Assembly: GCA_036009105.1 (NCBI GenBank) | Contig: DASYMJ010000043.1 | Coordinates: 25,658-89,657, forward strand | Origin: Thermoanaerobaculia bacterium | GTDB lineage: Bacteria; Acidobacteriota; Thermoanaerobaculia; Gp7-AA8 | Length of the DNA stretch: 64,000 bases | Reading direction: 5' to 3' | Shown: positions 11,428-29,306 of the stretch, piece by piece | Layout: the number at the start of each line of letters is the position of its first letter | Position numbering within the stretch: position 1 is the first letter of the stretch | Notes under the pieces: generated by a model | Databases searched by the model: none | Seen by the model: only the letters and a program-made list of their open reading frames with translations | What the model was told of the DNA's origin: nothing | Position numbers and translations under genes: made by a program

Positions 11428-11487
11428 GGCCGAAACAGAAGGTTAACAGGACATTTCCCAGTAACTACTTGCAAAAAGGGACGAAGC

Positions 11488-12978
11488 GTGAACCGGACTC
11501 GCGATTCTCTTCCCGTTGCGGTAGGTGCTGTCCTGACGATTCCGGTCGTCGCGGCAGCGCTTTCCGCTTTCGGGCTTGTACCTTCCGCCGCGCTGCTCGT
11601 CGCGGCGTTGCTGGTGAGCGCCGCGTTCTTCGCGGCGCGCGAGCGCATCGCGCAGGCGCTGCAACTCCCGGAGGGAGGAAGCGCACCCGTCGTGTTCGCG
11701 CTGATCGGCGTGCTCGCGGCGGCCCGGCTGTGGGGCATGAGCTGGTTCATGATGGATTCCGCCCACGCGGAAGCCTCGGTCCTCTGGTTCGACCCCTTCT
11801 ACATGCGGCACAGCTGCTTCTCCTCTCTCTACCTCTCGGCCAGGCTGGCCATGGAGCACGCGCCGAACCCGTACCAGTCGGAGCTCTATGACACGGACCT
11901 CTACAAGTCCTTCCTCGGCCGCTTCACCATGGACGAGTTCCTCTATCCCTCCCCCTTCATGCTCCTGCCCCGCATCGGCCTCGCCTTCACGAAGTCGTTC
12001 ATGACGCTGCGCACCGCGTGGTTCGCCCTCGAGGCGGCCACGTTCGGCGCCGCGGTGGTGATCGTGGCGAAGTGGATCGGCGGCGAAGAGGGGAAGCGCG
12101 CGCTCTTCCTCGCGCCGGCGCTCTTCCTGGCCACGCCCGTCCTGCTCACCCTGCAGATCGGCAACTTCCAGCTGGCGGCCATCGCCATGACGATGCTCGC
12201 CCTCGTCGCCTTCGACTCGCAGCACAACGCCACCGGCGGCGCGCTCCTCGGCTTCGCCCTCTTCAAGATCTTCCCCGGCATCGTCCTCATCCCCCTGGCC
12301 ATCCAGCGCCGCTGGAAGGCCGTGGTCTGGACGGCCGGTTTCTCCGCGCTCTACACCGCGCTCTCCGTGGCCTGGCTGGGACAGACGCCGCTGCGCCGGT
12401 TCCTCGGCTACGGCCTGCCCCGGATCACGAAAGGGGAGGCTTGGTCCTTTCTCGAGCTGGACGTCCCGATCATCCACGAGGTGGTGGCCATCAACCAGGG
12501 CATCCCCGGCCTCGCCCTCAAGCTCCACGACCTCGGCGTAAACCTGGCCATGCACGACGCCGTGCAGAAGGTCTCGCTGGTCTACAGCGTGATCATGCTC
12601 GCGTTGGCGGTGGTGGTGGGTTTCCGCCTCGCGAAAACGGAAGACAAGCTCACCCGGGCCCAGCTCTGGATCGCCCTCATCGCCCTCGCCGCGCTGCGCA
12701 GCCCGTTCGTGCCGGACACCTACGCGCTGCCGCCCGTGCTCTGGCTGTGGAGCCTGGTGATGCCGCGCTTCTGGCACAAGCCGCTCGGTATCGCGTTGCT
12801 CTGGATTCCGCTCTCCACCGTCCTCCCCTTCGAAGGGCCGCTGGCACCGCTCGGCAACACGCGCCTCTTCCTCGGGTTCATCGTCCAGCTCTTCGCGCTC
12901 GCCTTCACCGGCGCGCTCTTCCTCCAGCGTGCCCCCCGGCCCGCCCCCGACCTGATTCAGGAGCCCGTCCAGTCATGA
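11488..12978 (+). CDS. Polytopic GT-C-like membrane protein (DUF2029/GT87 mannosyltransferase-like)
   Basis: At least 10 TM helices, with FALFKIFPGIVLIPL-type motifs seen in DUF2029/GT87 proteins. Start is placed at GTG 11488 behind an AAGGGA RBS. The track ORF start at 11260 reads through the (GAATTGA)n palindrome. The stop overlaps the next gene's ATG (ATGA). Confidence 0.5.
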   Translation: MNRTRDSLPVAVGAVLTIPVVAAALSAFGLVPSAALLVAALLVSAAFFAARERIAQALQLPEGGSAPVVFALIGVLAAARLWGMSWFMMDSAHAEASVLWFDPFYMRHSCFSSLYLSARLAMEHAPNPYQSELYDTDLYKSFLGRFTMDEFLYPSPFMLLPRIGLAFTKSFMTLRTAWFALEAATFGAAVVIVAKWIGGEEGKRALFLAPALFLATPVLLTLQIGNFQLAAIAMTMLALVAFDSQHNATGGALLGFALFKIFPGIVLIPLAIQRRWKAVVWTAGFSALYTALSVAWLGQTPLRRFLGYGLPRITKGEAWSFLELDVPIIHEVVAINQGIPGLALKLHDLGVNLAMHDAVQKVSLVYSVIMLALAVVVGFRLAKTEDKLTRAQLWIALIALAALRSPFVPDTYALPPVLWLWSLVMPRFWHKPLGIALLWIPLSTVLPFEGPLAPLGNTRLFLGFIVQLFALAFTGALFLQRAPRPAPDLIQEPVQS

Positions 12979-15233
12979 CCAGAAACCTGCGAGGCGCGCT
13001 CGGCGCGCTCCTGCTCCTTTCCGCCGCGAGCCTGCAGGCGGACGTGCCGCCGCCGCCCGACTCGAGCGCCGTCCTGCGCGTGCCGCGCCTGGCGGTGCAG
13101 CCGCACCTGCAGGACATCATCCCCTCCGGCGCCGCGGGCATGGCGCGGGTGACCGACCTGCGCCAGAACACCCCCAAGGACGGCGAGCCGGTCACCCTCG
13201 GCACCGCCGTCTACCTCGGCTACGACGACACGAACCTCTACGTCGCCTTCGTCTGCCAGGACGAGCCGGACAAGGTGCGGGCCCGCATCACGCGGCGGGA
13301 AGACATCTTCGGCGACGAAGGGGTGCAGATCTTCCTCGACACGTTCCACGACAAGCAGCGCGCGTACGTCTTCGCCGCGAATCCGTTCGGCGTGCAGCTG
13401 GACGGCATCACCACCGAGGGGCAGGGCTACGACTTCAACTTCGACACGCTCTGGTATTCGGAGGGGCGGATCACGAAGGACGGGTTCGCGGTCTTGATGA
13501 CCATCCCGTTCAAGAGCCTGCGCTTCGCGCCGGGGGCGACGCAGCGATGGGGCGTCTCGCTGAGCCGGATCATTCCGCGCAAGAACGAGTTCGTCTACTG
13601 GCCGTGGATCACCGACCGGGTGGAGGGCTTCGTCCCCCAGTTCGCCACCCTGGAGATCGACGAAGCGATCTCGCCCGGCCGCAACTACCAGTTCATCCCG
13701 TACTCGGTGCTGACGCATTCGCGCCTGCTGGAGCCGGGTGGGGCGGGGGCGCTGCGGCCGGCCGGCTACAACAACACCACGCCCGGGCGGGTGGGGCTCG
13801 ATGGCAAGTTCGTGTTGCGCGACTCGCTCGCCGCCGACCTGACCGTCAATCCCGATTTCTCCGAGGTGGAATCGGATGAGCCTCAGGTGATCGTCAACCA
13901 GCGCTTCGAGGTGCTCTTCCCGGAGAAGAGGCCGTTCTTCCTGGAGAACGCCGGCTTCTTCGGGACGCCGATGAACCTCTTCTTCTCCCGCCGTATCGCC
14001 GATCCGCGCATCGGCGCGCGGCTCACCGGACGGGTAGGCAGATGGGCGCTCGGCGGCCTGGCCATCGATGACCGGGAAGGTGGGCTGGGCCTGCCCACCG
14101 ACCATCCCCAGTTCGGGCAGCGGGCGAACATCGGCGTGGCGCGCATGCAGCGCGACTTCGGGCGTCAGTCGAACGCCGGCTTCCTCCTCACCAGCCGGGA
14201 CATCGGCGGCGTCTCCAACCGGGTGGCGGCGTTCGACAGCCGGGTCAAGATCAACGAGAACTGGACGGCGACGGGACAGCTCGGCAAGAGCTGGAACCGG
14301 GGCGGCTTCTTCGGCGACGTCAACGGCACGGCCGGCTACTTCGACGTCAACCGCTCCGGCCGCGTCTTCAACTACGACGGCCAGTACCGCGACATCAGCC
14401 GCGACTTCGTCAGCGACCTGGGGTTCATCCCCCGCACCGACATCCGCCAGACCGAGCATACGGCGAGCCTCAAGCGCTGGGCGGAAGGGACGAAGCTCTT
14501 CAGCTACGGCCCGAGCGTGACCGGCCTGGCCACGTGGGACCACGCGGGCGAGCTGCAGGACTGGCTCGGCTCCGGCTCCTTCAACTTCAACTGGGTGGGC
14601 GGCACGTCGCTCACCCTGACCAGCGACCAGGGGTACGAGCGCTTCGCCGGCCTCGATTTCCGCAAGCACCTGGAGACGGTGTCGGCGCGCACGGAGTGGT
14701 GGAAGTGGCTGACCGCTTCGCTGAGCTACTCGCAGGGGACGGCGGTGAACTACTTTCCCGCCCCCGGCGTCGACCCCTTCCTGGGCGACCGCAGGCAGGT
14801 GGTGGTCGGGTTCACGCTCAGCCCCTTCTCCCGCCTGCGCCTCGACGAGACGCTGATCTACGACGACCTCTACACGCGCAACGCGGTGGCCGGGGTCGAT
14901 GCGGGGAGCCTCGTCTTCCGCAACCCGATCTCGCGGACCAAGGTGAACATGCAGTTCAACCGCTACCTCGCATTGCGGTTGATCGTCGACACGCACGCCA
15001 TCACGCCGGACGAGTCGCTCGTCCTGCTGCCGCGGACGAAGCACGTCACGGGCGATGTGCTCTTCAGCTACGTCCTCAATCCGGGGACCGTGCTCTACCT
15101 CGGCTACTCCGACAACTACGACAACGTCGCGCTTCTGAACGGGCCGCCTTCCCAGGTGGTGGCCACCCATTCGGCGCTCAACCCGACGGCGCGGCAGTAC
15201 TTCATGAAGGTGAGCTACCTGCTCCGGTTCTGA
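12975..15233 (+). CDS. DUF5916/CBM9-like outer-membrane protein
   Basis: The signal peptide is MTRNLRGALGALLLLSAASLQA. The N-terminal CBM9/DOMON-like segment reads LYVAFVCQDEPDKVRARITRREDIFGDEGVQIFLDTFHD. The long beta-rich C-terminus ends in KVSYLLRF, with a terminal Phe typical of OM barrels. The track ORF 12018.. over-extends in frame; the ATG at 12975 overlaps the upstream stop. Confidence 0.6.
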   Translation: MTRNLRGALGALLLLSAASLQADVPPPPDSSAVLRVPRLAVQPHLQDIIPSGAAGMARVTDLRQNTPKDGEPVTLGTAVYLGYDDTNLYVAFVCQDEPDKVRARITRREDIFGDEGVQIFLDTFHDKQRAYVFAANPFGVQLDGITTEGQGYDFNFDTLWYSEGRITKDGFAVLMTIPFKSLRFAPGATQRWGVSLSRIIPRKNEFVYWPWITDRVEGFVPQFATLEIDEAISPGRNYQFIPYSVLTHSRLLEPGGAGALRPAGYNNTTPGRVGLDGKFVLRDSLAADLTVNPDFSEVESDEPQVIVNQRFEVLFPEKRPFFLENAGFFGTPMNLFFSRRIADPRIGARLTGRVGRWALGGLAIDDREGGLGLPTDHPQFGQRANIGVARMQRDFGRQSNAGFLLTSRDIGGVSNRVAAFDSRVKINENWTATGQLGKSWNRGGFFGDVNGTAGYFDVNRSGRVFNYDGQYRDISRDFVSDLGFIPRTDIRQTEHTASLKRWAEGTKLFSYGPSVTGLATWDHAGELQDWLGSGSFNFNWVGGTSLTLTSDQGYERFAGLDFRKHLETVSARTEWWKWLTASLSYSQGTAVNYFPAPGVDPFLGDRRQVVVGFTLSPFSRLRLDETLIYDDLYTRNAVAGVDAGSLVFRNPISRTKVNMQFNRYLALRLIVDTHAITPDESLVLLPRTKHVTGDVLFSYVLNPGTVLYLGYSDNYDNVALLNGPPSQVVATHSALNPTARQYFMKVSYLLRF

Positions 15234-15235
15234 CC

Positions 15236-18200
15236 ATGACCGACAACACCGAAAAGCTGGCCGGACTCTCCAGCGCCAAGCGGGCGCTGCTCGAAAAACT
15301 CGTGGCCGAGCGGCGCGCGGCGGCGGGAGAGGTGCGTCCCCGCCCGCGCCCGGAGCGGGTGCCGCTCTCGTTCGGACAGGAGCGCCTGTGGGTGGTGGAG
15401 CAGCTCGCGCCGGGCAGCGCCGCGTACAACGAGCCGGTCGTGTTGTGGCTCTCCGGCGCGCTCGATGTGGGCGCATTGGAGCGCGCGATCAACGAGGTGG
15501 TGCGGCGGCACGAGTCGTTGCGCACGGCGGCCCCTTCGGAAGGGGGGCGTCCGTTCCAGCGCATCGCTCCGTCTTTGACGGTGCCGTTGGTGCTCGCAGA
15601 GGCGACGTCGGATGAAGGAGCGCTGCAGATGGCCAGCAGTGTGATCGCCGCCTCCTTCGATCTCGCCCGCGGGCCGCTCGTGCGCGCGTTGCTGGTGCGG
15701 GTGGAGGCCGAACGGCACCTGCTCGCCATCGCCGTCCACCATCTCCTGATCGACGGCTGGTCGATCAACGTCGTCCTCGGCGAGCTGGCCCGCCTCTACA
15801 ACGGCGAGGCGCTGCCCGAGCCGCCGCTGCAGTACGCCGACTACGCGCTCTGGCAGCGCGAGTGGCTGGACGGCGAGCGCATGGACCGCCAGCTCGCGCA
15901 CTGGCGCGAGCACCTGGAGGGTTGCCCTTCCACCCTCGACCTCCCGGCCGACCGCCCCCGCCCGCCCGTGCAGAGCTTCAAGGGCTCCGTGGTACGGCAC
16001 CTCATCCCGCCCGACCTGTACGAGGCGATGGAGCAGTTCAGCCGGCGGGAGAACGTCACCCCGTTCATGACGCTCTTCGCCGCCTGGACCACGCTGCTGC
16101 ACCGCCTGACCGGGCAGGAGGATCTGCCGCTGGGCGTGGGCCTGGCCAACCGCCCGCGCGCCGAGCTGGAGTCGATCGTCGGCTTCTTCGTGAACACGCT
16201 CGTGCTGCGCACGCGCTTCGACGGCGCGCCGACGTTCCTCGACCTGCTGGCCCGCGTGCGCGAGACGACGCTCGGCGCGCAGGCCAACCAGGATGCGCCG
16301 CTCAGCCGCGTCCTGGAGTCGATGAAGCTCGACCGCGCGGCGAGCCACATGCCCTTCGTGCAGGTGATGCTCTTCTTCCAGAACTACGCGCAGACGGCGC
16401 TGGCCATGAACGGCCTGCGCGTCTCGCGCGTGCCGCTCGACCTCGTTCATCCCGGCTCCGCGCAGACGGACATCGCGCTCTTCGTCAACCAGGATGCGAC
16501 GGGCGAGCTGCTCTTCCAGTACAGCACCGACCTGTTCGACCGGGAGACCATCGAACGGCTCGCCGGGAACTTTGTGGTGCTGCTGCGCGCGGCCATTGCG
16601 GATGCGTCGCAACCGATCGCGCAGCTGCCGCTGCTCACCGAGGAAGAGCGCGTGCAGCTGGCAAAGTGGAATGACACGCGCGTGCCGTATCACCACGGGC
16701 CGCTCATTTCGCTCGTGCAGGCGGCGAGCGACAAACCGGCCGTCACGTTCCGCGGCCGCACCCTGACCTATGCCGAGTTGCGCGCCAGAGCCTCCGCGCT
16801 GGCGGACGAGCTGCGCGCGAGCGGTGTGAAAGCGGGCGACCTGGTGGGCCTCTTCGTGGAGCGCTCGCTGGAGATGGTGATCGGCATCGTGGCCATCCTG
16901 GAGGCGGGCGGCGCGTACGTGCCGCTCGATCCGTCGTACCCCGCCGAGCGGCTCGCCTTCATGCTCGGCGACGCCGGCGCGAAGGTGGTGGTGACCCAGC
17001 GCGAGCTGCGCGAGCAGGTGCCGGTGCAGGGTGTGGAAGTGGTGATCGCGGACGCGGAAAATGTGGGGGCCGGCTTCAGCCGGCCCGGGCGGGCTGAAGC
17101 CCGCCCCCACGTTGACGACCTCGCCTACGTCATCTTCACCTCCGGCTCCACCGGCCGGCCCAAAGGCGTGCAGATCACGCAGCGCTCCGCGGCGAACCTG
17201 CTGCAGTCCGTGGCGCGAGAACCGGGCATGAACGCGGGCGACACCATCTGCGCCGTCTCCACGCTCTCCTTCGACATCGCCCTGCTGGAGCTCGTGCTGC
17301 CGCTCACCGTCGGCGCGCACATCCTCCTGGCCGACCGCGACACCGTGCGCGACGGCAACGCGCTGGGCCGCCTCGTCGCGAACAACGACGTCACCATCAT
17401 GCAGGCCACCCCGGCCACCTGGCGCATGCTCCTCGACATCGGCTGGCGCGGGAAGCCGGGCCTGAAGATCATCTCCACCGGCGAGGCGCTGCCGCGCGAG
17501 CTGGCCGAGCGCCTCCTGCCCTGCGGCCGCGAGCTGTGGAACCTCTACGGCCCCACCGAGACCACGGTCTACTCCGCCCTCGGGCGCATCGAGTCCGGCA
17601 GCGGCCCCATTTCCATCGGCAGGCCGGTGGCGAACACGCAGATCCACATCGTCGACCGCAACCTGCAGCTCCTCCCGCCCGGCGTCCCCGGCGAGCTGCT
17701 CATCGGCGGCGACGGCCTGGCCCGCGGCTACCTCGGGCGTCCCGACCTCACCGCCGAAAAGTTCATCCCCGATCCGTTCTCCGATCAGCCTGAGGCGCGC
17801 CTCTATCGCGCCGGCGACCTCGCCACGTGGCGGCGCGACGGCACCCTGGAAGTCCTCGGCCGGATGGATCACCAGGTCAAGCTGCGCGGCTTCCGCATCG
17901 AGCTCGGCGAGATCGAAGCCGTGCTGGCCCAGCATGCAGATGTCGAGCAGGCGGTCGTGCACTGCCGTGAAGACCGGCCCGGCGACAAGCGCCTCGTGGC
18001 CTACACCACGGGCGGCGCAAGCACGGACGCGCTGCGCGAGCACCTCCGCAAGTCGCTCCCCGACTACATGATCCCCGCCGCCTTCGTGGCGCTGGAGCAG
18101 TTTCCCCTCACGCCGAACGGCAAGGTGAACCGCCATGCATTGCCGGCACCCGAGGCCTTTGCGGGGGCGGCTGTGGAACCTCCGCAGACGCGGGAGGAGC

Positions 18201-18502
18201 GGGAGATGGCCACGCTGTGGTCCGACCTCCTCGGCCGCCGCGACATCGGACGCAACGACAACTTCTTCGACCTCGGCGGCCACTCCCTCCTCGCCATGCA
18301 GATGCTGGCCCGGCTGGAGAAGGCGACCGGCGTCGAAGTTCCCCTGCGCGTCCTGTTCGACGTGCCCACCGTCGCCACGCTGGCCCGGCACGTGGCCGCC
18401 GTGCGCACGGCCAGCCTGGAGACGGAGAACCTCGACGAGCTGCTGGCCCAGCTGGAGGGGCTCTCCGACGACGAGGCGCTCACACGGAGCCAGCTGTCAT
18501 GA
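15236..18502 (+). CDS. Non-ribosomal peptide synthetase, module 1 (C-A-PCP)
   Basis: C domain motifs are [13 protein letters not shown] and [9 protein letters not shown]. A domain motifs are [87 protein letters not shown] and NGKV. The PCP motif is [13 protein letters not shown]. The real ATG is 3 nt after the DUF5916 stop, and the stop overlaps the NRPS2 start (ATGA). Confidence 0.9.
   Translation: [1088 protein letters not shown]
17063..17110. repeat. 48-nt GC-rich double-hairpin element inserted in frame in the NRPS1 A domain (codes [18 protein letters not shown])
   Basis: GTGGGGGCCGGCTTCAGCCGGCCCGGGCGGGCTGAAGCCCGCCCCCAC is a near-perfect palindrome. It is related to the GGGCCGGCT...AGCCGGCCC family. 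It sits just upstream of the A3 motif. Confidence 0.7.
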
Positions 18503-21500
18503 GTGATACCACGCAACGCATCGCCGACCTCTCGCCGCAGAAGCGCGCGCTCCTGCTCCAGCAGCTGGCGAAGGAGAAGGCCGCGCGCGGCCGCATCGTC
18601 CGCCGCGAGCGCCCCGACCCCCTCCCCCCCTCCTTCGCCCAGCAGCGCCTCTGGCTCCTCGACCAGCTCGAGCCGGGCTCGGCGAGCTACAACGTGCCGG
18701 CCGGCGCCTGGATGCGCGGCAAGCTCGATCTCGACATCCTGCGCCGCTGCCTGGAAGAGCTGGTGCGGCGTCACGAGGCGCTGCGCACCACCGTGCCTTC
18801 TTCGGACGGCCGGCCGCACCAGGTCATCGCCGCGCAGGGGCGCGTCGAGCTGCCGCTGTATCACGCCTCCTCGCGCGCCGAAGCGCGGGCCATCGGGCAG
18901 AAGGAGGCGACGCGGCCGTTCGATCTGGCCAAGGGGCCGCTCATGCGCACGCTGGTGGTGCGCCTGTCCGAGGAGGAGCATCTCCTCGTCTTCAACTTCC
19001 ATCACATCGCCGTGGACGGCTGGTCGTTCAGCGTCCTCTATCGCGAGCTCGGCGCGCTTTACGGGGCGTTCCTGCACGGCCGCCCGTCGCCGTTGCCGGA
19101 GCTGCCCATCCAGTACGCCGACTTTGCGCTCTGGCAGCGCGAGTGGCTGCAGGGCGACGTGCTGAAAGGCCAGCTCGACTACTGGACCGAGCGGCTGAGC
19201 GGCAACATCCCGGTGCTGGAGCTGCCCGGCGACCGCCCCCGGCCGGCGAAGCAGTCCTACCGCGGGGACGTGGTGCGCGTGGTCATCCCCGCGGAGCTGG
19301 TGGCCGCCGCCGCGCAGCGCAGCCGCGAGGAAGGCATCACCCTCTTCATGACCTTCCTCGCCGCGTTGAAGACGCTGCTCTTCCGTTACTCCGGACAGAC
19401 CGACGTCGTGGTCGGCTCCGGCATCGCCGGCCGCAACCGGGAAGAGCTGGAGCCGCTGGTCGGCTACTTCGTCAACACGCTCGCCTTGCGCACGGACCTC
19501 TCCGGCAATCCGACGTTCCGCGAGCTGCTGGCCCGCATCCGGGAGACGACCCTCGGCGCGTACGCGCATCAGGACCTGCCGGTGGAGCGGCTGATCGAGG
19601 AGCTCCACGTGGAGCGCTCCCTCGGCCACTCGCCGCTCTTCCAGGTGATGGTCTTCTTCCAGAACATGCCGCATCAGAAGCTGGAGCTGCCCGGCATCAC
19701 GCTCGAGCCGCTGCAGATGGACGAGGTCAACTCCGAGACTGCGCGCACCGATCTGGCGCTGTTCGTCGAGCGGCATGACGACGGCCTGGCCATCCTCTTC
19801 GAGTACAGCACCGACCTGTTCGACGAGGAGACCGTGCGCGCGTTCGGCGAGCACCTGGTGGTGCTGCTGCGCGCCGCGGTGGCGAATCCCGATACGAAGA
19901 TCGGCGAGCTGCCGCTGCTGACCGATGCCGAGCGGCACACGCTGCTCGTTTCCCGTACCGCGAACGCGGCGCCGGTTCCGTCCGCCACGCTCTCCTCGCT
20001 GTTCGAGCAGCAGGTGGCGCGCACGCTGGAGGCGACGGCGCTGATCTTCCCCGAGCGCCGGCTGACGTATCGCGAGCTGGACGAGCGGGCGAACGGCTTC
20101 GCCGCCGAGCTGCAGTCGCGAGGCGCGAAGCCGGGCGAGCTGGTCGGCATCTACACCGACCGCGGCCCGGAGATGGCGATCGCTCTGCTGGGCATCCTCA
20201 AGTCGGGCGCGGCCTACCTGCCGCTCGACCCCACCTATCCGCCCGACCGACTCGCCTTCATGCTCTCGGACACCGGCGCGCGGCTGGTCGCGACGCAGAA
20301 GCACCTGCGCGATGAGGTGCCGTCGAAGGATGTGGAGCTGGTCTTCGTGGACGCATGTCATCCTGAGGGCAGCGAAGGATCCCCCGGCTCAGGCGGCGCA
20401 CGTGCCGGGAGATCCTTCGCCGTCTCCGCGGCTCAGGATGACACCCCGCGCGCCACGCCCGACGACACCGCCTACGTCATCTTCACCTCCGGCTCCACCG
20501 GCAAGCCCAAGGGCGTGCAGATCCCTCATCGCGGCGCGGTGAACTTTCTCCTGGCCATGCTGGAGGCGCCGGGGCTCACGCCGGCGGACACCGTCTGCGC
20601 CATCACCACCCTCTCCTTCGACATCTCCGTCCTGGAGCTCCTCCTCCCGCTGATCATCGGCGCGAAGGCGGCGGTCAGCGACCGGGCCACGGCCACGGAC
20701 GGCAAGCGCCTCGCGCAGTTCATCAGGGACAGCGGCTCCACCGTCGTCCAGGCCACGCCCGCCTCCTGGCGCATGCTCCTCGACGCCGGCTGGGAAGGCG
20801 TGCCCGGGCTGAAGATCCTCTGCGGCGGCGAGCCGCTGCCGCGCGACCTGGCCGACCTCCTCCTGGCCCGGGTGGGGGAGCTGTGGAATGTCTACGGCCC
20901 TACCGAGACCACGGTCTGGTCGGTGCTCGACCGCGTGCTGCCGGACCAGCCGATCACCATCGGCAAGCCGATCCGCAACATGCGCATGTACGTCGCCGAC
21001 GCGAACATGCAGCTCGTCCCGGACGGCGTCCCCGGCGAGCTCCTCATCGGCGGCCTCGGCCTCGGCCACGGCTACGTCAACCGCCCCGAGCTCACCGCCG
21101 ACCGCTTCATCCCCGATCCGTTCAGCGGCATCGAAGGGGCGCGCCTTTACCGCAGCGGCGACATCGCCCGCTGGAGACGAGACGGCCGCCTGGAGATCCT
21201 CGGCCGCTCCGACGGCCAGGTGAAGCTGCGCGGCTTCCGCATCGAGCTGGGCGAGATCGAAGGCGCCCTGCGCGAGCACGCCGCGGTGCGCCAGGTGGTC
21301 GTCGTGCTGCGCGAGGACCGGCCGGGCGACAAGCGCCTCGTGGCCTACGTGGTTCCTCACCAGGCCGCGCCGGCCACGAACGAGCTCCGCGCGCATCTCC
21401 GCGCCATGCTCCCCGACTACATGATCCCCAGCGCGTTCGTCGTGCTGGAGAAGCTGCCCATCTCCCCCAACGGCAAGGTGGACCGCCGCGCGCTGCCTAT

Positions 21501-21834
21501 GCCCGAGCTCTCGGACATCAACGAAGTGGCCGCTCCCGTTGCGCCGCGCACGGCGGAAGAGGAGCAGCTGGCCGAGATCTGGGCCGACGTCCTCGGCCTC
21601 CCCGCGGTCGGCATCGACGACGACTTTTTCGTGCTCGGCGGCCACTCATTGCTGGCCACGCAGCTCATCGCCCGCGTCGGCCGCACGTTCGGCGTCGACC
21701 TGCCGCTGCGCCGGCTCTTCGAAGCGCCGACCGTCGCCTCGTTCGCCGCGGTGCTCGTGACCGAGATGATGTCGACCCTCAACGCGCTGAGCGAGGACGA
21801 GCTGCAGGCGCTCCTGGGAGGGCAGGCTCCTTGA
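18499..21834 (+). CDS. Non-ribosomal peptide synthetase, module 2 (C-A-PCP)
   Basis: C domain motifs are [13 protein letters not shown] and [10 protein letters not shown]. A domain motifs are [51 protein letters not shown] and NGKVDR. The PCP motif is [13 protein letters not shown]. Confidence 0.9.
   Translation: [1111 protein letters not shown]
20357..20442. repeat. MITE-like hairpin element (GTCATCCTGAG...CGAAGGATCC family) inserted in frame in the NRPS2 A domain
   Basis: The element is gtcatcctgagggcagcgaaggatcc-ccc-ggctcaggcggcgcacgtgccgggagatccttcgccgtctccgcggctcaggatgac, with terminal inverted repeats. It encodes [30 protein letters not shown] immediately upstream of the A3 motif. Confidence 0.75.
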
Positions 21835-21845
21835 CCGCCGAGTCG

Positions 21846-24800
21846 ATGGCCGCGCGCCTGGCGCGCCTCACCCCGCAGGAGCGCGCCCGGCTCCTGCGCA
21901 GCGCCGCCGCTCGCGCGACGGCCGTTCCCCGCCGCCCGGCCGGGCAGAACGAGCTGCCGCTCTCGCCCGCGCAGCAGCGGATGTGGTTCCTGGAACAGCT
22001 GCAGCCGGGCGCGTATCACTCCTACGACTTCACGCGCCTCATCGGTCCGGTCGATGTGGCGCGCCTCGACGCCGCCTTCCGGGAGATCGTCCGCCGCCAC
22101 GAGGCGCTGCGCACATCGTTCGTCAGCGTGGACGGCACGCCGCGGCAGCTCGTGCACGATGAGGTGCCGTTCTCCATCGCCTCCGTCACCGTGGAGGATC
22201 CCGAGGGTTTCGCGGACGCGGAGACCCTGCGCCCGTTCGATCTCACCCGGGCGCCTTTGCTGCGCGTGACGCTCGTGAACGGGCAACTGCTGCTGGTCAC
22301 GCTGCATCACATCATCTCGGACGGCTGGTCGCTCGGCGTCCTCGATCAGGAGCTGCGCGCGCTGTACGCCGGTGCGTCGCTGCCGGAGCTGCCGGTGCAG
22401 TTCGGCGACGTCGTGTTGTGGCAGCAGTCGCGGACCGGGGAAGGCGTGGACTGGTGGAAGCAGACGCTGAGCGGCGTTCCCGACGTGCTCGACCTGCCCG
22501 CCGACCACCCGCGGCCGGCCGTGCAATCCTTCCGCGGCGCGCGCGTCACGCACACGGTTTCGCCTTCGCTTCTCGCGGAGCTGAACGAGCTCGCCCAGCG
22601 CGAACACGTCACGCTGTTCATGCTCCTGGTCGCCGCCTTCGACGTGCTGCTCTACCGCCACACCGGCCAGAGCGAGTTCGCCGTCGGGACGCCGGTCGCG
22701 AACCGCACGCCGGAGACCGAGCCGCTGATCGGCCTCTTCATCAACACCATCGCCCTGCGGGCGAACCTGAGCGACGACCCATCGTTCCGCGAGCTGCTCG
22801 GGCGCGTGCGCGAGACGTCCCTCGAAGCGTTCGCCCATCAGGACGTGCCGTTCGACCGTGTGGTCGACGCCCTCGCATTACCGCGCAACGCCAATCGCAC
22901 GCCGCTCTACCAGACCATGATCGTCCTCGGCGCGGGGCAGGGGAGCTACGCGCCGCTGGGCGACATCGAGCGGGTGCCGTATCACCCCCACTCCGCCTCC
23001 GCGCGCTTCGACCTGACGCTGTCGATGGCCATCGACGAGACCGGCCTGGTCTGCCTCTTCGACTACGCGGCCGATCTGTTCGATCCGGCCACCGTCGAGG
23101 CCTTCGCGCGCCGCTACGAGATGCTGCTGCGCGGCGCGGCGGCTGATCCGAATACGGCGGTGTCTCGGCTGCCGCTGATGGATGCCGCCGAGCGCGGTGT
23201 CATCCTGAGCCGCGCGGCCGGCGAAGGATCCGTACCGCTCCTGCGCGATACGACGCTCCACGCACTTTTCCAGGAACAGGCCGCCCGCACGCCCGACACG
23301 CCCGCGGTGAACGACGTGACGTACGGGGAGCTCGACCGCTGGTCGGACGAGATCGCCGCCACCATCGACACCCACCTCGTCCCCTTCCTCGCCGACCGCA
23401 CGCCGGCCGCGATCGCGCAACTGCTCGGCATCCTCAAGGCGGGCGCCGCCTACCTCCCCATCGATCCCGCCACGCCGCGGGAGCGCCTCGACTGGCTCGT
23501 CGCGGACAGCAAGTCGGTGGCGCCGGGCGACAACGCATACGTGATCTACACCTCCGGTTCCACCGGCACGCCGAAAGGCGTCGTGGTCAGCCACCGCTCC
23601 GCGGTCAACCTGACCCTGGCTTTCGCGCAAAGCCATCAGTTTGCAGGTCACCGCCTGCTGATGATCCCGCCGCTGCACTTCGACGCCTCGGTGGGCGACG
23701 TCTTCCCCGCCCTCGCCACCGGCGCGACGCTCATCCTCCATCCGTCGCCCGCCGACCTCGACGCCCGCGCGCTGGCCCGCTTCTGCAACGAGCAGGGCGT
23801 CACCGCCATCGACGCGCCGGCCGCGCTCTGGCGCCGCTGGGCCGCGGAGTGGCAGCCCATCCCCGCGCTGCGCCTGATGATGGTGGGCGGTGAGTCGGTG
23901 CCGGTGGATGAAGTGCGCCGCTTCGCGCGCCTGACGAACAACCAGGTCCGCTTCGTCAACCACTACGGCCCGACCGAAGCGACGGTCTGCGCCACGACCT
24001 ATCACACCGTCGACGCGAGCGAGTGCACCACGACCGAGCTCCCCATCGGCAAGCCGATCGCGAACGTCTCCGCATACGTCCTCGACCAGCACCTCCAGCC
24101 GGTGCCGCGGGGCATCGCGGGCGAGCTGTACATCGGCGGCGCCGGCGTGGCGCGCTATCACGGCCGGGAAGAGTTCCTCCCCAACCCGTTCGGCGAGGGC
24201 CGCCTCTATCGCACCGGCGACCTGGCCCGCCGCCTCGCCTCGGGCGACCTCCTCTTCCTCGGCCGCGCCGACCGGCAGATCAAGCTGCGCGGCTTCCGCA
24301 TCGAGCCGGGGGAGATCGAGGCCGCCATCCTCGCCCACGCCGGCATCCGCGCTGCGATCGTGATCAAGCGCGAGGAGCGGCTCGTCGCCTATGTCGTCGG
24401 CGAGACGGAGCTGCAGTTGCACGACCGCCTGCCGGAGTACATGGTGCCGTCCGCGATCGTGCGCCTCGAGGCGCTCCCGCTGACGAGCAACGGCAAGGTG
24501 GACCTCAACGCGTTGCCCGCTCCCCCCCGCACGACCACCAGTTCCCGCGCGCCCCGCAACGAGACGGAGCGCGAGCTGCTGCGCATCTGGTGCGAGGTGT
24601 TGCAGGCAGACGGCCTCGGCATCGACGACTTCTTCGCGCACGGCGGCGACTCCCTCCGCACCATGCCCCTGGTGTTCAAGGTGCGGGAGCGCTTCGGCGC
24701 CGACCTCCCGCTCAGCTCCGTCTTCCGCGCCCCGACCGTGGCGCGCTTCGCCGCGCTCCTCACGCACGGAGCGCAGGCGGACGATCTGGAATCGAAAATC

Positions 24801-25886
24801 GGCACGTTCCGGGCGCCGGCCATCCGGCGCGCAAACATGCCGCCGAAGAACGTCCTCATCACCGGCGCCACCGGCTTCCTCGGCGCGTTCCTCCTCGACG
24901 AGCTGCAGCGCTCCACGAACGCCACCATCTACGCGCTCGTCCGCGCGGCGAACAAGGCAGACGCGATGCGTCGCATCCGGGAGAACCTCGCTTCTTACGG
25001 TCTGACGCCGGATGAGAAACGCATCGTTCCTCTGCTCGGAGACCTGGCCGAGCCGGGTCTCGGCATCACCGAGAACCTGGACGCCATCGACGTGATCTAT
25101 CACAACGGCGGCGCGGTGAACTTCATCGCGCCGTACGAGCGCCTCGCCGCGGCGAACGTGGACGGCACCCGCACGGTGCTGGCCATGGGCCGGCCGGTGC
25201 ACGTCGTCTCCACCCTGGGCGTCCATTTCACCAAGCCGCGCATCGGCCAAGTGGTGACCGAACAGGATCCCCTGCCGCCCGGCAAAGACATCCTGGGCGG
25301 CTACAACGAGACGAAGTGGGTCGCCGACCGCGTGGCCCAGCTGGCCCGCGAGGCCGGCGTGCCGGTCTCCATCCATCGCCCGGCGCGCATCACCGGCGAC
25401 AGCCGCACTGGCGCGCTCAACCCGGCCGATCTCTTTTACAGCTGGATCAAAGGCTGCGTGCAGCTGGGCAGCTTCCCGGACGACGCGCCGCTGCTGAACA
25501 TGGCGCCGGTCGACCACATCGCCCGCTCCATCGTCGCAATCTCCCTGCACATCGAGCAACCGGCCGACTACCACTACTTCAACAACCGCATGCTGCCGCT
25601 GGAGACGCTCGTCTCCACGCTCCGCCGCCGCGGCTTCGAAGCCTCCATCAAGCCGTACCGGCAGTGGATCGAACAGCTGCGCCACGCGCCGGAGAACCCG
25701 CTGGCGAAGTACCTGGCTCTGATGGAAGAGCCGGACCAGGGCGAGCCGGTGTTCGACTGCACGCGCACCGAAAACGCGCTGGCCCGGCTCGGCATCCTCT
25801 GTCCGGCGGCGGATGAAGCCCTGCTCGGCCTCTACCTCGACCAGCTCCTGCCCGAGCCGGCCATCGCCATGAAAGGACACCCATGA
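21846..25886 (+). CDS. Non-ribosomal peptide synthetase, module 3 with terminal thioester reductase (C-A-PCP-R)
   Basis: C domain motifs are [13 protein letters not shown] and [10 protein letters not shown]. A domain motifs are [81 protein letters not shown] and NGKVDL. The PCP motif is [12 protein letters not shown]. The R domain has [15 protein letters not shown] and GGYNETKW (Y...K). The start could instead be TTG 21831, overlapping the NRPS2 stop. The stop overlaps the MFS gene's ATG. Confidence 0.85.
   Translation: [1346 protein letters not shown]
23199..23250. repeat. Half-copy (left arm plus part of centre) of the MITE-like GTCATCCTGAG element in the NRPS3 C-A linker
   Basis: gtcatcctgagccgcgcggccggcgaaggatccgtaccgctcctgcgcg matches the left half of the full element at 29315-29410. 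It encodes [17 protein letters not shown]. Confidence 0.6.
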
Positions 25887-27196
25887 CCCGCCGCCGCGCA
25901 TTTCTCTGGATCTGGATCGGGCAGCTGATCTCCGTGATCGGCTCGCGCCTTTCCACGTTCGCCGTCGGCATCTGGGTCCTGCAGAAGACCGGCTCGACGA
26001 CGCAGTACGCCTTCATCTTCATCTGCATGGCCGTGCCGGCCCTGCTCCTCGCGCCGTTCGCCGGCGCGCTCGTCGACCGCTGGGACCGGCGCAAGGTGAT
26101 GATCGCCGCCGACGCGCTGGCCGCCTTCACCGTGCTCGGCCTCGGCATGCTGCTCTACCTCGACGCGCTCGAGCTGTGGCAGATCTACGTCGCCGCCGGC
26201 CTGCAGGCGGTCGCCACCGGCTTCCAGATCCCCGCCTACATGGCCAGCATCCCGCTGCTCGTGCCGAAGGAGCAGCTCGCCCGCGCGAACGGCATGGTGC
26301 AGACCGCGTTTGCCGCCGCGCAGATCGTCGGCCCCGCGCTGGCAGGCGTGCTGGTGAGCACCATCTCGCTCTACGGCGTCCTGTTCGTCGACTTCGTCAC
26401 GTTCGTGGCCGGCATCATCGCCCTCCTCGTGGTCGACGTCCCGCGCCCCGCGGCCGGCGAGCACGAAGAGAAGGCGCCAGCGCTGTGGCAGGAGGCGGCG
26501 GAAGGCTTCCGCTTCGTCCGCGAGCGGGGCGGCCTCCTCGGCCTGCTCACCCTCTTCGGTTTCACGAACTTCCTCTTCGGCATCGTCAGCATCCTCATCA
26601 CGCCGATGGTCCTCTCCTTCACGAACGCCGCGGGCCTCGGCATGCAGATGTCGATCGGCGGCTGCGGCCTGCTCCTGGGCGGCGTCCTGATGAGCGCCTG
26701 GGGCGGCCCGAAGCGGCGCATCCACGGCGTGCTCGCCTCCACCGTGTTCGCCGGCCTGATGCTGGCCATGCACGGCCTGCGCGCGGACATCTGGTTCGTC
26801 TCGGCGATGGGCTTCTTCTTCTTCATCTCCCTGCCGATCATGAACGCCTCCCAGGATTCGATCTGGCAGACCAAGGTGCCGGCCGCGCTGCAGGGGCGCT
26901 GCTTCGCCATCCAGCGCGTTTTGTCCGAGGCGGCGATGCCGATCGGTTTCTGCATCGCGGGCCCGCTGGCGGATCGCGTGTTCGAGCCGCTCCTGAGGCC
27001 GGGCGGTCCGCTGGCCGATTCCGTCGGCCGCGTGATCGGCGTCGGCCCCGGACGCGGCATCGCCCTGATCTTCATCGTCTCGGGCTTGACCATGGCGCTG
27101 GCCGGACTGGTCGGCTACGCCATGCGCGGGCTGCGCAACGTCGAGACCGATCTTGCCGACGCGCCGGTCGAGCCGGCGCCCGCTGTCGCTGCATGA
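25883..27196 (+). CDS. MFS transporter (EntS/macrolide-efflux-like), probable product exporter
   Basis: 437 aa with 12 predicted TM helices. The N-terminus MTRRRAFLWIWIGQLISVIGSRLSTFAVGIWVL is typical of the enterobactin-exporter EntS family. Its start overlaps the NRPS3 stop. Confidence 0.8.
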   Translation: MTRRRAFLWIWIGQLISVIGSRLSTFAVGIWVLQKTGSTTQYAFIFICMAVPALLLAPFAGALVDRWDRRKVMIAADALAAFTVLGLGMLLYLDALELWQIYVAAGLQAVATGFQIPAYMASIPLLVPKEQLARANGMVQTAFAAAQIVGPALAGVLVSTISLYGVLFVDFVTFVAGIIALLVVDVPRPAAGEHEEKAPALWQEAAEGFRFVRERGGLLGLLTLFGFTNFLFGIVSILITPMVLSFTNAAGLGMQMSIGGCGLLLGGVLMSAWGGPKRRIHGVLASTVFAGLMLAMHGLRADIWFVSAMGFFFFISLPIMNASQDSIWQTKVPAALQGRCFAIQRVLSEAAMPIGFCIAGPLADRVFEPLLRPGGPLADSVGRVIGVGPGRGIALIFIVSGLTMALAGLVGYAMRGLRNVETDLADAPVEPAPAVAA

Positions 27197-27210
27197 GTCC
27201 CGGAGAATCT

Positions 27211-27990
27211 ATGAGCGCAGACGACACTCACGAAAAAGCAATGGCCGCCGGTTGCCCCCACGCCACGCGCGCCGCGAGCCTTTCCATCCGTTCCGAGTCC
27301 CCCTCGGCGCCGGTCTCGCCCGAGCTTTTCACCATCAACCAGGTGGAGACGCTGATGGCGCCCGAGCATCCGCTGGCCGTCACCGCCAAATGGATGCGCC
27401 GTTTCCTGGCCCGGCCGCATCGCGAGCTCGGCCGCCCCGGCCCGGTCTGCCCCTTCGTCCCCGGCGCCATCGTGCAGGACACCATCTGGATGGCCGACTG
27501 CTCCCTCGGGCGCGGCGACCGGCAGGCCATCATCGAGATCATCGGCCTCTTCCGCGACCTCTTCCTCAACCTAGAGCCGAAGGGGGGCGATGCCGCGGCC
27601 TGGAAGGCGATGGTCATCGTCTTCCCGAACGTAGCCATCGAAGACGCGGATGTGATCGACCAGGTGCAGTCGGAGCTGAAAGCGCGCTTCGTCGACGCCG
27701 GCCTCATGATCGGCGAGTTCCACGAGCGGAACGAGAGCCCCGGCCTGCGCAACGACAACTTCCGCCCGCTGCGCAGCCCCATCCCGGCCCTGGCCATCCG
27801 CCACATGGTGGAGACCGACCTGCCGTTCCTCTACCGCACCCTCTATCCGCCGCCGTTGCGCGCGGAGTTCATCCGCTCCTATCTGCGCCGCCTGGGCGGC
27901 ACGATCAGCCGCAACAACTTCGACGCGGCGCTCGACGCGCTCGTGCTGGCGGAGATCGCCATCCGCACTCCGGAAGAGGTGACGACCTGA
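27211..27990 (+). CDS. Conserved hypothetical protein (259 aa) co-transcribed between the MFS exporter and KMO
   Basis: The ATG at 27211 lies behind a GGAG RBS. The track ORF 26176.. over-extends in frame. I recognise no known catalytic motif. Sequence landmarks are PGPVCPFVPGAIVQDTIWMADCSLGRGDRQAIIEIIGLF and FHERNESPGLRNDNFRPLRSPIPALAIRHMVETDLPF. Confidence 0.55.
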   Translation: MSADDTHEKAMAAGCPHATRAASLSIRSESPSAPVSPELFTINQVETLMAPEHPLAVTAKWMRRFLARPHRELGRPGPVCPFVPGAIVQDTIWMADCSLGRGDRQAIIEIIGLFRDLFLNLEPKGGDAAAWKAMVIVFPNVAIEDADVIDQVQSELKARFVDAGLMIGEFHERNESPGLRNDNFRPLRSPIPALAIRHMVETDLPFLYRTLYPPPLRAEFIRSYLRRLGGTISRNNFDAALDALVLAEIAIRTPEEVTT

Positions 27991-27992
27991 CC

Positions 27993-29306
27993 ATGGATCA
28001 CGTCGCGGTCATCGGCGGCGGGCTGGCCGGCTCGCTCTTCGCGCTGCGCCTGGCCCGGCAGGGGCATCGCGTCGACGTGTACGAGCGGCGTCCCGATCCG
28101 CGCCTGCGCCGCGGCGAAGGCGGCCGGTCGATCAACCTGGGCCTTTCCAAGCGCGGCATCGCCGCGCTGGGCGAGGTCGGCCTGCGCGAGGAGGTGCTCT
28201 CGCTCGCCGTGCCGATGGAGGGCCGCGTGATCCACACCCTGGACGGCGTGGAGCGCTTCCAGCCGTACGGCAAGAACCGCCAGGAAGTGCTGCACTCCAT
28301 CGACCGCAACGAGCTGAACGACCTGCTCCTCGATCGCGCCGAGGCTCATTCGCAGGTGCGTCTGCACTTCGAGCATCGCTGCGTCGGCGTCGATGCTGCC
28401 GCGCGCACCATCCTGGTCGCGGATGCTTCCGGCGCGGTCAGGCCGGTCAGCGCCGACTGGGCGGTCGGCGCGGATGGGGCGTTCTCCAAGATCCGGGAGG
28501 AGATGCAGCGCGGCCAGCGGGCGAACTTCAGCAAGGAGTTCCTGGAGTGGGGCTACAAGGAGCTGAACCTCCCCGCCCGCGCCGACGGCACTTCGCAGCT
28601 GCGCCTGAACGCCCTGCACGTGTGGCCGCGGGGCCACTGCCTCATCGTGTCCCACGCCAACCGCAACGGCTCGCACACCCTGACGCTGTTCCTGCCGTTT
28701 GAAGGCGCCGACAGCTTCGCCACCCTGCGCACGCCATCCGACATCAGCTCCTTCTTCGCCCGCTACTTCCCCGACCTCGTGCCGCTGTTGCCCGAGCTGC
28801 TGTCGCAGTGGGAGAGCCACCCGGTCGGCTCGCTCGTCACCACCCGCACCACGCCGTGGCACCTGGCGGATTGGATCGTCCTCGTCGGCGATGCCTGCCA
28901 CGCCGTCTATCCGTTCTACGGGCAGGGGATGAACTCCGCGTTCGAGGACTGCTCCGCCCTCGCCGCCGCCCTGGCCGCCCACCCGGCCCGCCTGGATGCC
29001 TTTCGCGCCTACGAGCGCTCCCGCCGCCCCCACACCGACACGCTGGCCGAGCTCTCCAAGGAGAACTTCGTCGAGCTCCGCCAGCGCGTGCAGTCGCCCC
29101 TTTTCGTCCTGCGCAAACGGATGGACGTCTGGCTCAACCGCCTCGCGCCGTCGACCTGGCTCCCCCTCTACACGATGATCGCCCACACCACGATGCCGTA
29201 CGGCGACGCCCTGGCCCGCGCGCGGCGGCAGGACCGGTTGCTGTTGTCGCTGGCCGGCGCCTGCGGGGTGGCAGTGCTGGGGGCGCTGGCGCTGCTATTG
29301 GGGTAA
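27993..29306 (+). CDS. kmo: Kynurenine 3-monooxygenase (FAD-dependent), with a hydrophobic C-terminal tail
   Basis: The FAD fold is VAVIGGGLAGSLFAL. KMO-specific segments are YERRPDPRLRRGEGGRSINLGL, NALHVWPRGHCLI and VLVGDACHAVYPFYGQGMNSAFEDC. These closely match the Pseudomonas KMO motifs FERRPDPR/RGRSINLAL, NALHIWP and [23 protein letters not shown]. The C-terminal 22 aa (LLLSLAGACGVAVLGALALLLG) are hydrophobic. The start is 3 nt after the upstream stop. Confidence 0.85.
   Translation: MDHVAVIGGGLAGSLFALRLARQGHRVDVYERRPDPRLRRGEGGRSINLGLSKRGIAALGEVGLREEVLSLAVPMEGRVIHTLDGVERFQPYGKNRQEVLHSIDRNELNDLLLDRAEAHSQVRLHFEHRCVGVDAAARTILVADASGAVRPVSADWAVGADGAFSKIREEMQRGQRANFSKEFLEWGYKELNLPARADGTSQLRLNALHVWPRGHCLIVSHANRNGSHTLTLFLPFEGADSFATLRTPSDISSFFARYFPDLVPLLPELLSQWESHPVGSLVTTRTTPWHLADWIVLVGDACHAVYPFYGQGMNSAFEDCSALAAALAAHPARLDAFRAYERSRRPHTDTLAELSKENFVELRQRVQSPLFVLRKRMDVWLNRLAPSTWLPLYTMIAHTTMPYGDALARARRQDRLLLSLAGACGVAVLGALALLLG

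Follow-up and report, generated by a model that had tools for sequence, protein, structure and literature searches.

An eight-gene peptide synthetase operon of a Thermoanaerobaculia bacterium, predicted to use N1-hydroxytryptophan and linked to GT87 and DUF5916 envelope genes

What would a bacterium make with three non-ribosomal peptide synthetase (NRPS) modules ending in a reductase, when the same operon also encodes two oxygenases and two proteins of the cell envelope? The question is raised by an eight-gene locus at 11488-29306 of a 64,000-nucleotide stretch of DNA (G+C ~69%), called the window throughout, from Thermoanaerobaculia bacterium of the Acidobacteriota (GenBank assembly GCA_036009105.1, contig DASYMJ010000043.1, positions 25,658 to 89,657 of the forward strand). 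Our reading, to which we give a probability of roughly 0.55, is that the locus specifies an X-Gly-(N1-hydroxy-Trp-derived) peptide, which would be released reductively, exported, and probably glycosylated or otherwise handled in the envelope. The cluster in the window belongs to a widespread and as yet uncharacterised family of biosynthetic gene clusters, and the distinctive trait of this family is an NRPS core with a cytochrome P422 and a kynurenine 3-monooxygenase (KMO)-like enzyme, recurrently coupled to a GT-C transferase and an outer-membrane protein that joins a CBM9-like domain to a β-barrel.

Operon layout and the two oxygenases

The genes of the operon, with the condensation (C), adenylation (A), thiolation (T) and reductase (R) domains of the NRPS proteins, are as follows.

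g1, 11488-12978, plus strand: GT87-family GT-C membrane glycosyltransferase, 496 aa, GTG start (PF09594)
g2, 12975-15233, plus strand: DUF5916 outer-membrane protein, 752 aa, ATG start (PF19313)
g3, 15236-18502, plus strand: NRPS module 1, C-A-T, 1088 aa, ATG start (Pfam)
g4, 18499-21834, plus strand: NRPS module 2, C-A-T, 1111 aa, ATG start (Pfam)
g5, 21831-25886, plus strand: NRPS module 3, C-A-T-R, 1351 aa, TTG start (Pfam and TIGR01746)
g6, 25883-27196, plus strand: major facilitator superfamily (MFS) exporter of the EntS/Mef type, 437 aa, ATG start (MFS_1 and MFS_3)
g7, 27211-27990, plus strand: DUF6875 / cytochrome P422, 259 aa, ATG start (PF21780)
g8, 27993-29306, plus strand: KMO-family FAD monooxygenase (FMO), 437 aa, ATG start (FAD_binding_3)

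Each of the eight open reading frames (ORFs) has a single terminal stop codon. Four junctions are overlaps of 4 nt (ATGA at 12975, 18499 and 25883; TTGA at 21831), the g2/g3 and g7/g8 gaps measure 2 nt each, and the g6/g7 gap (27196 to 27211) measures 14 nt. Since the junctions are translationally coupled, g1-g8 are probably co-transcribed. An earlier prediction, made from the letters of the window without database searches (the original prediction below), had described eight plus-strand genes in one tightly coupled operon with this domain order; every ORF and junction was found where it had placed them, Pfam and NCBIfam bear out each of its domain assignments, and the same order recurs in three related contigs described below.

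The one protein that it had left unrecognised, g7, is a DUF6875 protein, which matches PF21780 at 193.2 bits (cut-off 24.5) and holds all four motifs of its family, namely RPGPVCP (with Cys80), DQVQSELK, MIGEF and RHMVETDLPF, these motifs being invariant in 20 diverse g7 homologues. The new name of DUF6875, cytochrome P422, comes from a preprint of December 2025 (Ma et al., bioRxiv 10.64898/2025.12.11.692455), which describes a thiolate-ligated b-type haem with a 422-nm CO spectrum, a haem-binding motif (RxGxVCP) and three substrate motifs (Rx(M/L)x3Dx2F, Dx2(Q/H)x3K and MxGxF), and which reports that P422 enzymes hydroxylate free L-Trp at N1, C6 or C7. According to the supplement of the preprint, Lc584 (Lysobacter capsici AZ78), Ls910 and Ls950 (Lysobacter spp.) and Rr391 (Rugamonas rubra) form 1-hydroxytryptophan (1-OH-Trp) in vitro.

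The assayed Lysobacter and Rugamonas enzymes are homologues of g7 at 46-55% identity, and the block of R domain, MFS, P422 and FMO genes seen in the window also occurs at locus L063 of R. rubra and in L. enzymogenes as a representative of Lysobacter. Because these assayed orthologues of the same cluster family give 1-OH-Trp, hydroxylation of free L-Trp at N1 is the best-supported prediction for g7. The likeness to the NRPS-associated L-Trp N1-hydroxylases of the preprint (its subclade II-b) thus covers the Pfam domain, the four motifs and the gene context. That study, in the part of it accessible to us, characterised enzymes, not peptides or clusters; N1-hydroxy-Trp peptides are predicted there and none is named, and the KMO-like partner, GT87 and DUF5916 go unmentioned. 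An exact-sequence look-up of g7 returned no match, and the only PDB sequence match, to FANCF at E = 0.001, was judged spurious.

The flavoenzyme g8 had been called a KMO-family protein from the start, and its ten best PDB matches are indeed all KMOs, at 299 bits over the full length (5FN0/6FOX), with the next family at 67 bits. Its identity to the Pseudomonas fluorescens enzyme (PfKMO) is 39.9%. Four residues that we take to hold the amino-acid end (carboxylate/amino) of L-kynurenine in PfKMO, R84, Y98, N369 and Y404, do not vary among the 68 cluster-linked g8 homologues. Other pocket positions have changed in 65-68 of the same 68 proteins, through L226H (68/68), H320Y (65/68), M373L and Y370F. 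The best NCBIfam model for g8 is VioC, an indole-oxidising relative, at 200 bits vs a cut-off of 760, and g8 is the most conserved protein of the cluster (62-91% identity between phyla). Compared with PfKMO (5FN0), therefore, g8 shares full-length homology, the FAD fold and the four anchors, but differs at 226, 320, 373 and 370, and its gene always lies beside that of the Trp hydroxylase, never beside genes of the kynurenine pathway. Tryptophan and indoleamine 2,3-dioxygenases (TDO/IDO), formamidase and kynureninase were found neither in the window nor in the related loci whose genes or ORFs were checked. From these features we infer that g8 belongs to the KMO family, binds a free aromatic amino acid and represents a distinct, cluster-linked subfamily.

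The assembly line and its adenylation codes

The NRPS proteins form a C-A-T / C-A-T / C-A-T-R line, as originally predicted. The C-domain motifs are intact (HHLLIDG in g3, HHIAVDG in g4, HHIISDG in g5) and the HHxxxDG form recurs in the orthologues, apart from the third C domains noted below, the T domains carry GGHS (g3 and g4) or GGDS (g5), and the A domains retain their core motifs and Lys517, with Pfam and TIGR01733 scores above the cut-offs. The reductase of g5, at about 24849-25847, scores 254.1 bits against TIGR01746 (cut-off 213.35) and contains GATGFLG at residue 1012 and the YxxxK motif as Y1158NETK. With the R domain intact in both motifs, release is therefore predicted to be reductive, as an aldehyde or alcohol, which agrees with the original prediction. 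Among NCBIfam models for g5, the generic NRPS/PKS model PRK05691 came first and MxcG and AusA next, all well below their cut-offs. A terminal C-A-T-R with a reductase of the TIGR01746 type is shared with the systems for reductively released peptides (myxochelin MxcG, aureusimine AusA, peptide aldehydes), although the monomers and accessory genes of those systems differ, and the present cluster has envelope genes and neither an aryl carrier nor a loading module.

Adenylation codes were taken by alignment to GrsA, for which the control code DAWTIAAICK was recovered; positions 278, 299 and 301 were read by hand relative to the conserved Pro281 and the GGE motif and then transferred by pairwise alignment, and the codes were compared with those of Table S7 of PMC12283262. 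Such a reading of all three A domains had been proposed with the original prediction. The A2 code, DILQLGVVWK, is exactly the Gly(13) code documented in that table, and the A2 codes of the orthologues (DILQLGLIWK, DILQLGMIWK, DILQLGMVWK and DILQLGLVWK) are all documented there for Gly as well. The window's A1 code is DILQITLVYK, that of most orthologues DIFQITLVYK; its nearest tabulated neighbour is the Gly(5) code DILQIGLIWK (PMC12283262), and A1 probably loads a small residue of the Gly/Ala type.

The A3 code, DAGDMGHVCK, is the same in ~25 loci from Acidobacteriota, Lysobacteraceae, Oxalobacteraceae and one Anaerolineae genome, the sole change among them being a conservative M-to-L replacement in R. 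rubra, while NRPS3 identity between the lineages that share it is 40-47%. Six of its ten positions agree with each of the Trp codes of WAPS2 (DAGLVGEVWK) and PdtS (DASLVGDVCK) listed in PMC12283262. The shared pattern comprises a small residue at 239, G301, a polar residue at 322 and V330; the pocket differs from those of WAPS2 and PdtS by Asp278 and His322. This combination would suit an A3 that loads a Trp carrying extra polar groups, and, as far as the tabulated codes of PMC12283262 go, it does not favour a kynurenine-type unit.

The A3 domain also prompted a rejected candidate and several observations. Because g5 is shorter than its orthologues (1351 vs ~1445 aa), a dead, deleted A3 was considered; it was rejected, all core motifs being intact, and the length difference comes from a 73-aa linker insertion in the orthologous contig L001 together with small indels elsewhere. 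This in-frame insertion lies in the C-A linker of the L001 NRPS3 (~14800-15020), has an internal repeat (VILSRE[D]GE...) and does not occur in the window. The stretch between the adenylation motifs A2 and A3 in the third A domain (window 23240-23700) is ~40-50 residues shorter than in GrsA, A1 and A2, and this shortening is common, in varying degree, to the orthologues. In the third C domain, HHxxxDA replaces HHxxxDG in Lysobacteraceae, Oxalobacteraceae and some Acidobacteriota (L011, L018-L023, L049, L053, L063 and other proteobacterial loci), and the Thermoanaerobaculia relatives nearest to the window keep HHxxxDG.

How the chain starts is a separate matter. C1 stands where a starter C domain would, as the first domain of the first module with no A-T upstream, and the original prediction had accordingly proposed a starter-type domain. 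Against C domains in the PDB, C1 scores 349 bits with Txo1, 337 with Txo2, 279 with DhbF and 234 each with TycC6 and FscG, vs 52 bits with the solved starter domains CDA-C1 (4JN3) and RzmA-Cs (7C1K). Modules 1 and 2 are also paralogous, with 49% identity between C1 and C2 and 56% between A1 and A2. By its match scores, then, C1 resembles an elongation (LCL) domain and not a starter domain. The original prediction had named an elongation-type C1 together with a loading module encoded elsewhere as findings that would speak against it; the first half of that pair agrees with the scores, and for the second no loading module was found in the 64-kb window or in the relatives examined, L. enzymogenes having only ~1.5 kb, free of any loading module, between NRPS1 and the neighbouring operon. 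Because the N-termini of g3, g4 and g5 are alike, as are the C-terminal tails of g3 and g4, promiscuous docking with reuse of modules 1 and 2 is conceivable. The peptide may nevertheless be N-acylated, by analogy with safracin, whose SacA has a C domain as its first domain too and whose synthesis involves a cryptic palmitoyl chain. MbtH, phosphopantetheinyl transferase (PPTase) and type II thioesterase, absent according to the original prediction, and a loading A-T module were all missing from the whole 64-kb window (Pfam of large ORFs plus a six-frame motif scan).

Relatives, envelope genes and surroundings

Relatives were collected by scanning one genome per species with a P422 profile, which gave 546 loci; the best 80 were examined, with a tblastn census of the block formed by the R domain, MFS, P422 and FMO. 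About 60 of these 80 loci carry the block, in several Acidobacteriota lineages, Lysobacter, Arenimonas, Thermomonas, Montanilutibacter, Ahniellaceae, Steroidobacteraceae, Rugamonas, Duganella and Janthinobacterium; cyanobacterial P422 loci in the same census lacked it. A copy binned as Chitinophaga pinensis (L027, CALRWS020000045.1) is near-identical in layout and identity levels to the Lysobacteraceae versions and may reflect a binning error or a transfer.

The g4 protein is 100% identical to a protein of a Thermoanaerobaculia metagenome-assembled genome. Among the orthologous clusters, which share 66-88% identity, two subclades can be told apart. Subclade A (the window, L001, L006 and L008) has the order GT87-DUF5916-NRPS x3-MFS-P422-FMO, L008 ending inside NRPS3. 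The upstream flanks of L006 and L008 are unlike that of the window, and L001 has the window's flank of NUDIX and metallo-β-lactamase-fold genes. The arrangement is unlikely to be a matter of chance because both order and coupling recur in these independent contigs. Subclade B (L003, L004, L005 and L007) has the order DUF5916-NRPS x3-P422-FMO, with a small-molecule O-methyltransferase and the MFS gene on the opposite strand and no GT87. The methyltransferase is of the Methyltransf_2/Dimerisation type, and an Sfp-type PPTase gene is present in three of the four loci; these additions were noted at L003 20280-21284, L004 19633-21053 and L007 19705-21200. They suggest that these organisms may make an O-methylated congener (N-methoxy or methoxy-indole).

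The original prediction had regarded the GT-C and DUF5916 proteins as unusual accessories for an NRPS, and the comparison strengthens their association. DUF5916, mostly with GT87, lies beside the NRPS block in at least five arrangements from three lineages. GT87-DUF5916 stands upstream of the NRPS genes and coupled to them (the window, L001, L006, L008); DUF5916 stands alone upstream (L003, L004, L007) or downstream of the FMO gene (L009/L070, L075, L083); seven Oxalobacteraceae loci have FMO-GT87-DUF5916-NTP_transferase-GtrA/GT2 on one strand; and in L. enzymogenes a divergent neighbouring operon reads NTP_transferase-GtrA/GT2-hypothetical-PRK-HAD-GT87-DUF5916-Acyl_transf_3. The GT87-DUF5916 pair as such is kept in L001, L006, L008, L010 and the seven Oxalobacteraceae loci. 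At least 12 of the 27 best long-contig DUF5916 homologues have a longest contig equal in length to that of a P422 match.

The g1 protein matches PF09594 at 65.9 bits (cut-off 25) and has at least nine hydrophobic segments. In g2, which matches DUF5916 at 49 bits and CBM9 weakly, a signal peptide is followed by an N-terminal CBM9-like β-sandwich and a large β-barrel, and the CBM9-like domain on this barrel is compatible with a glycosylated cargo. A TonB-dependent receptor was considered for g2 and rejected, as Foldseek TM-scores reached only ~0.3; DUF5916 has neither a plug domain nor a TonB box. The exporter g6 matches MFS_1 and MFS_3 and scores 243 bits with TIGR00900, its EntS and Mef matches being below their cut-offs. 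An MFS gene occurs in essentially all cluster versions, in varying position and strand.

GtrA/GT2 proteins together with a GT-C transferase are the classic set for periplasmic glycosylation of the envelope (GtrABC, ArnC/ArnT, mycobacterial GT87). The present cluster resembles these kits through its GT87 protein g1, to which the proteobacterial versions add NTP_transferase and GtrA/GT2 genes; the known kits modify O-antigen, lipid A or lipoglycans, whereas here the kit lies in or beside an NRPS cluster and is paired with a CBM9-barrel protein. Genes of the GT2/GtrA type for polyprenyl-phosphate-sugar donors sit in the Rugamonas cluster and in the neighbouring operon of L. enzymogenes.

In L. 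enzymogenes the cluster, at 5.277-5.313 Mb, falls within a region to which a comparative-genomics paper gives the loose antiSMASH label 'BE-43547A1'; it has not been described further, and two Lysobacter genome-mining papers contain no mention of it. It is not the Le-pyrrolopyrazine cluster of that species, a candidate that was rejected since it is another locus (~2.5 Mb) and is absent from L. capsici. The original prediction had not recognised the gene combination from any characterised pathway, and no match to one was found.

Around the operon, the upstream flank consists of minus-strand NUDIX and metallo-β-lactamase-fold genes and the downstream flank of YjbR followed by an AcrB/HlyD pair on the minus strand, all unrelated to the cluster. 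A consensus promoter and terminator scan gave nothing above chance. One conserved element stands immediately before g1.

11370-11487, plus strand: candidate leader or promoter region upstream of g1, ~115 nt, nearly identical to the region upstream of GT87 in L001

The terminator scan flagged a hairpin at 11381-11398 followed by a T-rich run within this stretch, which could be a promoter, leader or attenuator; Rfam gave no family match for 11370-11487, only sub-threshold hairpin matches. Further upstream, between g1 and the divergent NUDIX gene, lies an AT-rich inverted repeat at 11243-11325 made of (GAATTGA)x4, a spacer and a (TTTTCAA)x4-like array. Its heptamer pattern has 6 matches vs 0.1 expected and occurs nowhere else in the window; the repeat is missing from the orthologous L001 region, and in Rfam it gave only sub-threshold miRNA-hairpin models. 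Downstream, an AcrB-type RND pump (1024 aa) and a HlyD-type membrane fusion protein are encoded at 29750-34043 on the minus strand, convergent with the cluster, in a neighbourhood not kept in the relatives. Safracin is exported by an RND pump whose gene lies elsewhere in the genome. A second GT-C-type membrane glycosyltransferase gene (PMT/PMT_2; 51064-52731) lies 22 kb from the cluster beside an asparagine synthase gene, and nothing was found that ties it to the cluster.

Weighing the readings and what the family may mean

The pathway that we favour would run as follows. The P422 enzyme g7, with its family motifs in place, would hydroxylate free L-Trp, most likely at N1 as its assayed orthologues do, and g8 would also take a free aromatic α-amino acid and add a second oxygen. 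A3 would load the modified Trp, A2 Gly (by its exact code match) and A1 a small Gly/Ala-type residue, so that the three C-A-T proteins would build X-Gly-Trp*, or a longer chain if modules 1 and 2 were reused, possibly N-acylated, before the terminal reductase, whose domain and motifs are in place, freed the peptide as an aldehyde or alcohol. The exporter g6 would move the peptide across the inner membrane. Linked as they are to the same genes, g1 and g2 would act in the same pathway, g1 most likely by transferring a sugar from a polyprenyl-phosphate donor, and the g2 barrel by passing the product through the outer membrane or displaying it there. The complete route, in which a peptide with an N-hydroxy-indole and perhaps a lipid tail is exported by MFS, glycosylated by GT87 from a polyprenyl-phosphate sugar and passed or displayed by DUF5916, is put forward tentatively.

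Several points weigh against this reading. The peptide product is predicted from the genes, and the A1 and A3 specificities are deduced from codes; for that of A3, none of the Trp, Phe and Dab/Dap/His codes tabulated in PMC12283262 is an exact match, and its Asp278 is also reminiscent of codes for basic amino acids. The model offers no explanation of chain initiation, since every one of the three modules opens with an intact C domain of the elongation type and a loading module is missing. P422 needs a ferredoxin and a ferredoxin reductase, for which the cluster has no genes, and g8 could be a true kynurenine hydroxylase. On the envelope side, scans of the window ORFs found no polyprenyl-phosphate-sugar synthase gene, and the subclade B clusters do without GT87 altogether. 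A DUF5916 homologue of 50% identity is encoded by itself, the 10 kb around it being free of NRPS genes, and the family therefore has a function independent of the peptide; its >6800 homologues vs 514 for P422 also weigh against an exclusive link.

The first of the competing explanations is that of the original prediction, in which a starter C domain N-acylates residue 1 and the KMO and the then unrecognised protein supply 3-hydroxykynurenine or 3-hydroxyanthranilate for a lipotripeptide aldehyde or alcohol. It draws on the clear KMO-family membership of g8 with all four anchors kept, and on a first module that opens with a C domain and has no loading module, like SacA in the pathway with the cryptic palmitoyl chain. 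Yet P422 orthologues make 1-OH-Trp, genes for TDO, formamidase and kynureninase are missing from the cluster versions checked, the FMO pocket is altered by L226H and H320Y in essentially all members, and A3 is Trp-like, and for these reasons a kynurenine-type unit is less likely than a hydroxylated Trp. With C1 a paralogue of C2 that scores far better with elongation than with starter domains, and with no acyl ligase or acyl carrier protein present, we regard this explanation as improbable.

Of the characterised systems, that of safracin and saframycin is the nearest in architecture. It too has C-A-T / C-A-T / C-A-T-R in three proteins of the same order, with a C domain at the start of SacA; module 2 takes Gly, the module with the reductase takes an aromatic amino acid tailored by a haem hydroxylase, an FAD monooxygenase is encoded as well, and release is reductive. 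An alternative built on it would have an acyl-X-Gly thioester reduced to the aldehyde, module 3 acting iteratively, and C3 performing a Pictet-Spengler reaction onto the indole to give a tetrahydro-β-carboline alkaloid. Protein sizes as well as layout match SacA/B/C, the residue order is likewise small-Gly-modified aromatic, compared with Ala-Gly-Tyr* in the tetrahydroisoquinoline family, the A2 Gly codes are of the same group as those of SacB and SafA, and the haem hydroxylase acting on a free aromatic amino acid, the FAD monooxygenase and the subclade B O-methyltransferase parallel SfmD/SacD, SacJ and SacG. However, the A3 code is unrelated to the tetrahydroisoquinoline-family code DPWGLGLIDK (SacC, SafA, EtuA2), the aromatic unit predicted here being Trp-derived and not Tyr*, and the window lacks an SfmD-type peroxidase, C- and O-methyltransferases, MbtH and a SacK/SfmE-type membrane peptidase. 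The resemblance is one of architecture only, nothing in this cluster speaks for iterative or Pictet-Spengler chemistry, and such an alkaloid seems to us an unlikely product.

Two further alternatives concern the envelope genes. GT87, DUF5916 and, in Proteobacteria, the polyprenyl-phosphate-sugar genes might alter a glycolipid or glycan of the envelope, for example as a self-protection comparable to the Arn system of lipid A modification, or form a co-regulated envelope module, the peptide itself being left untouched. The likeness to the classic glycosylation kit, the separate operon with an Acyl_transf_3 gene in L. enzymogenes, the subclade B clusters that manage without GT87, and both the lone DUF5916 homologue and the size of its family are in keeping with this idea, whereas the fact that the pair has stayed next to the NRPS genes while gene order changed in at least five ways across three lineages, its coupling on the same strand in the window and in Oxalobacteraceae, and the systematic match of the best-scoring DUF5916 homologues to P422-bearing contigs speak for a closer tie to the peptide; we consider remodelling possible, if doubtful. 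The product could alternatively be a metallophore with an N-hydroxy-indole or ortho-dihydroxy ligand, exported by MFS and passed through the outer membrane by the DUF5916 barrel. The EntS/MFS_3 type of the exporter would suit this, the nearest solved folds of the g2 barrel include siderophore receptors, two oxygenations on one indole could give a chelating pair, and L004, L005 and L007 each have a TonB-dependent receptor gene 3 kb upstream. But DUF5916 lacks the hallmarks of such receptors (no plug domain or TonB box, TM-scores of ~0.3), there is no evident sign of a Fur box, a reductase or a periplasmic binding protein, and a single bidentate ligand on a tripeptide would make a weak siderophore, so that of all the readings this one appears to us the least probable.

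If the N1-hydroxy-Trp peptide reading with its glycosylation steps is true, a GT-C (GT87) enzyme would glycosylate a non-ribosomal peptide in the periplasm, by a route conserved from Acidobacteriota to Lysobacter and Oxalobacteraceae; to our knowledge, no GT-C enzyme has so far been found to glycosylate such a peptide, and part of the very large DUF5916 family would gain its first function. Genome mining gains new specificity markers in the invariant code DAGDMGHVCK and the retuned KMO-like subfamily, and the cluster family is a concrete, widespread candidate for the predicted N1-hydroxy-Trp peptides. The prediction is directly testable because the cluster occurs in culturable and genetically tractable organisms, namely L. 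enzymogenes, L. capsici AZ78, Rugamonas rubra ATCC 43154 and Janthinobacterium. The linkage of GT87 with DUF5916 offers a first functional handle on the latter, and the association of the core with GT-C, polyprenyl-phosphate-sugar and CBM9-barrel genes points to an unexplored route for finishing and exporting secondary metabolites in the Gram-negative envelope.

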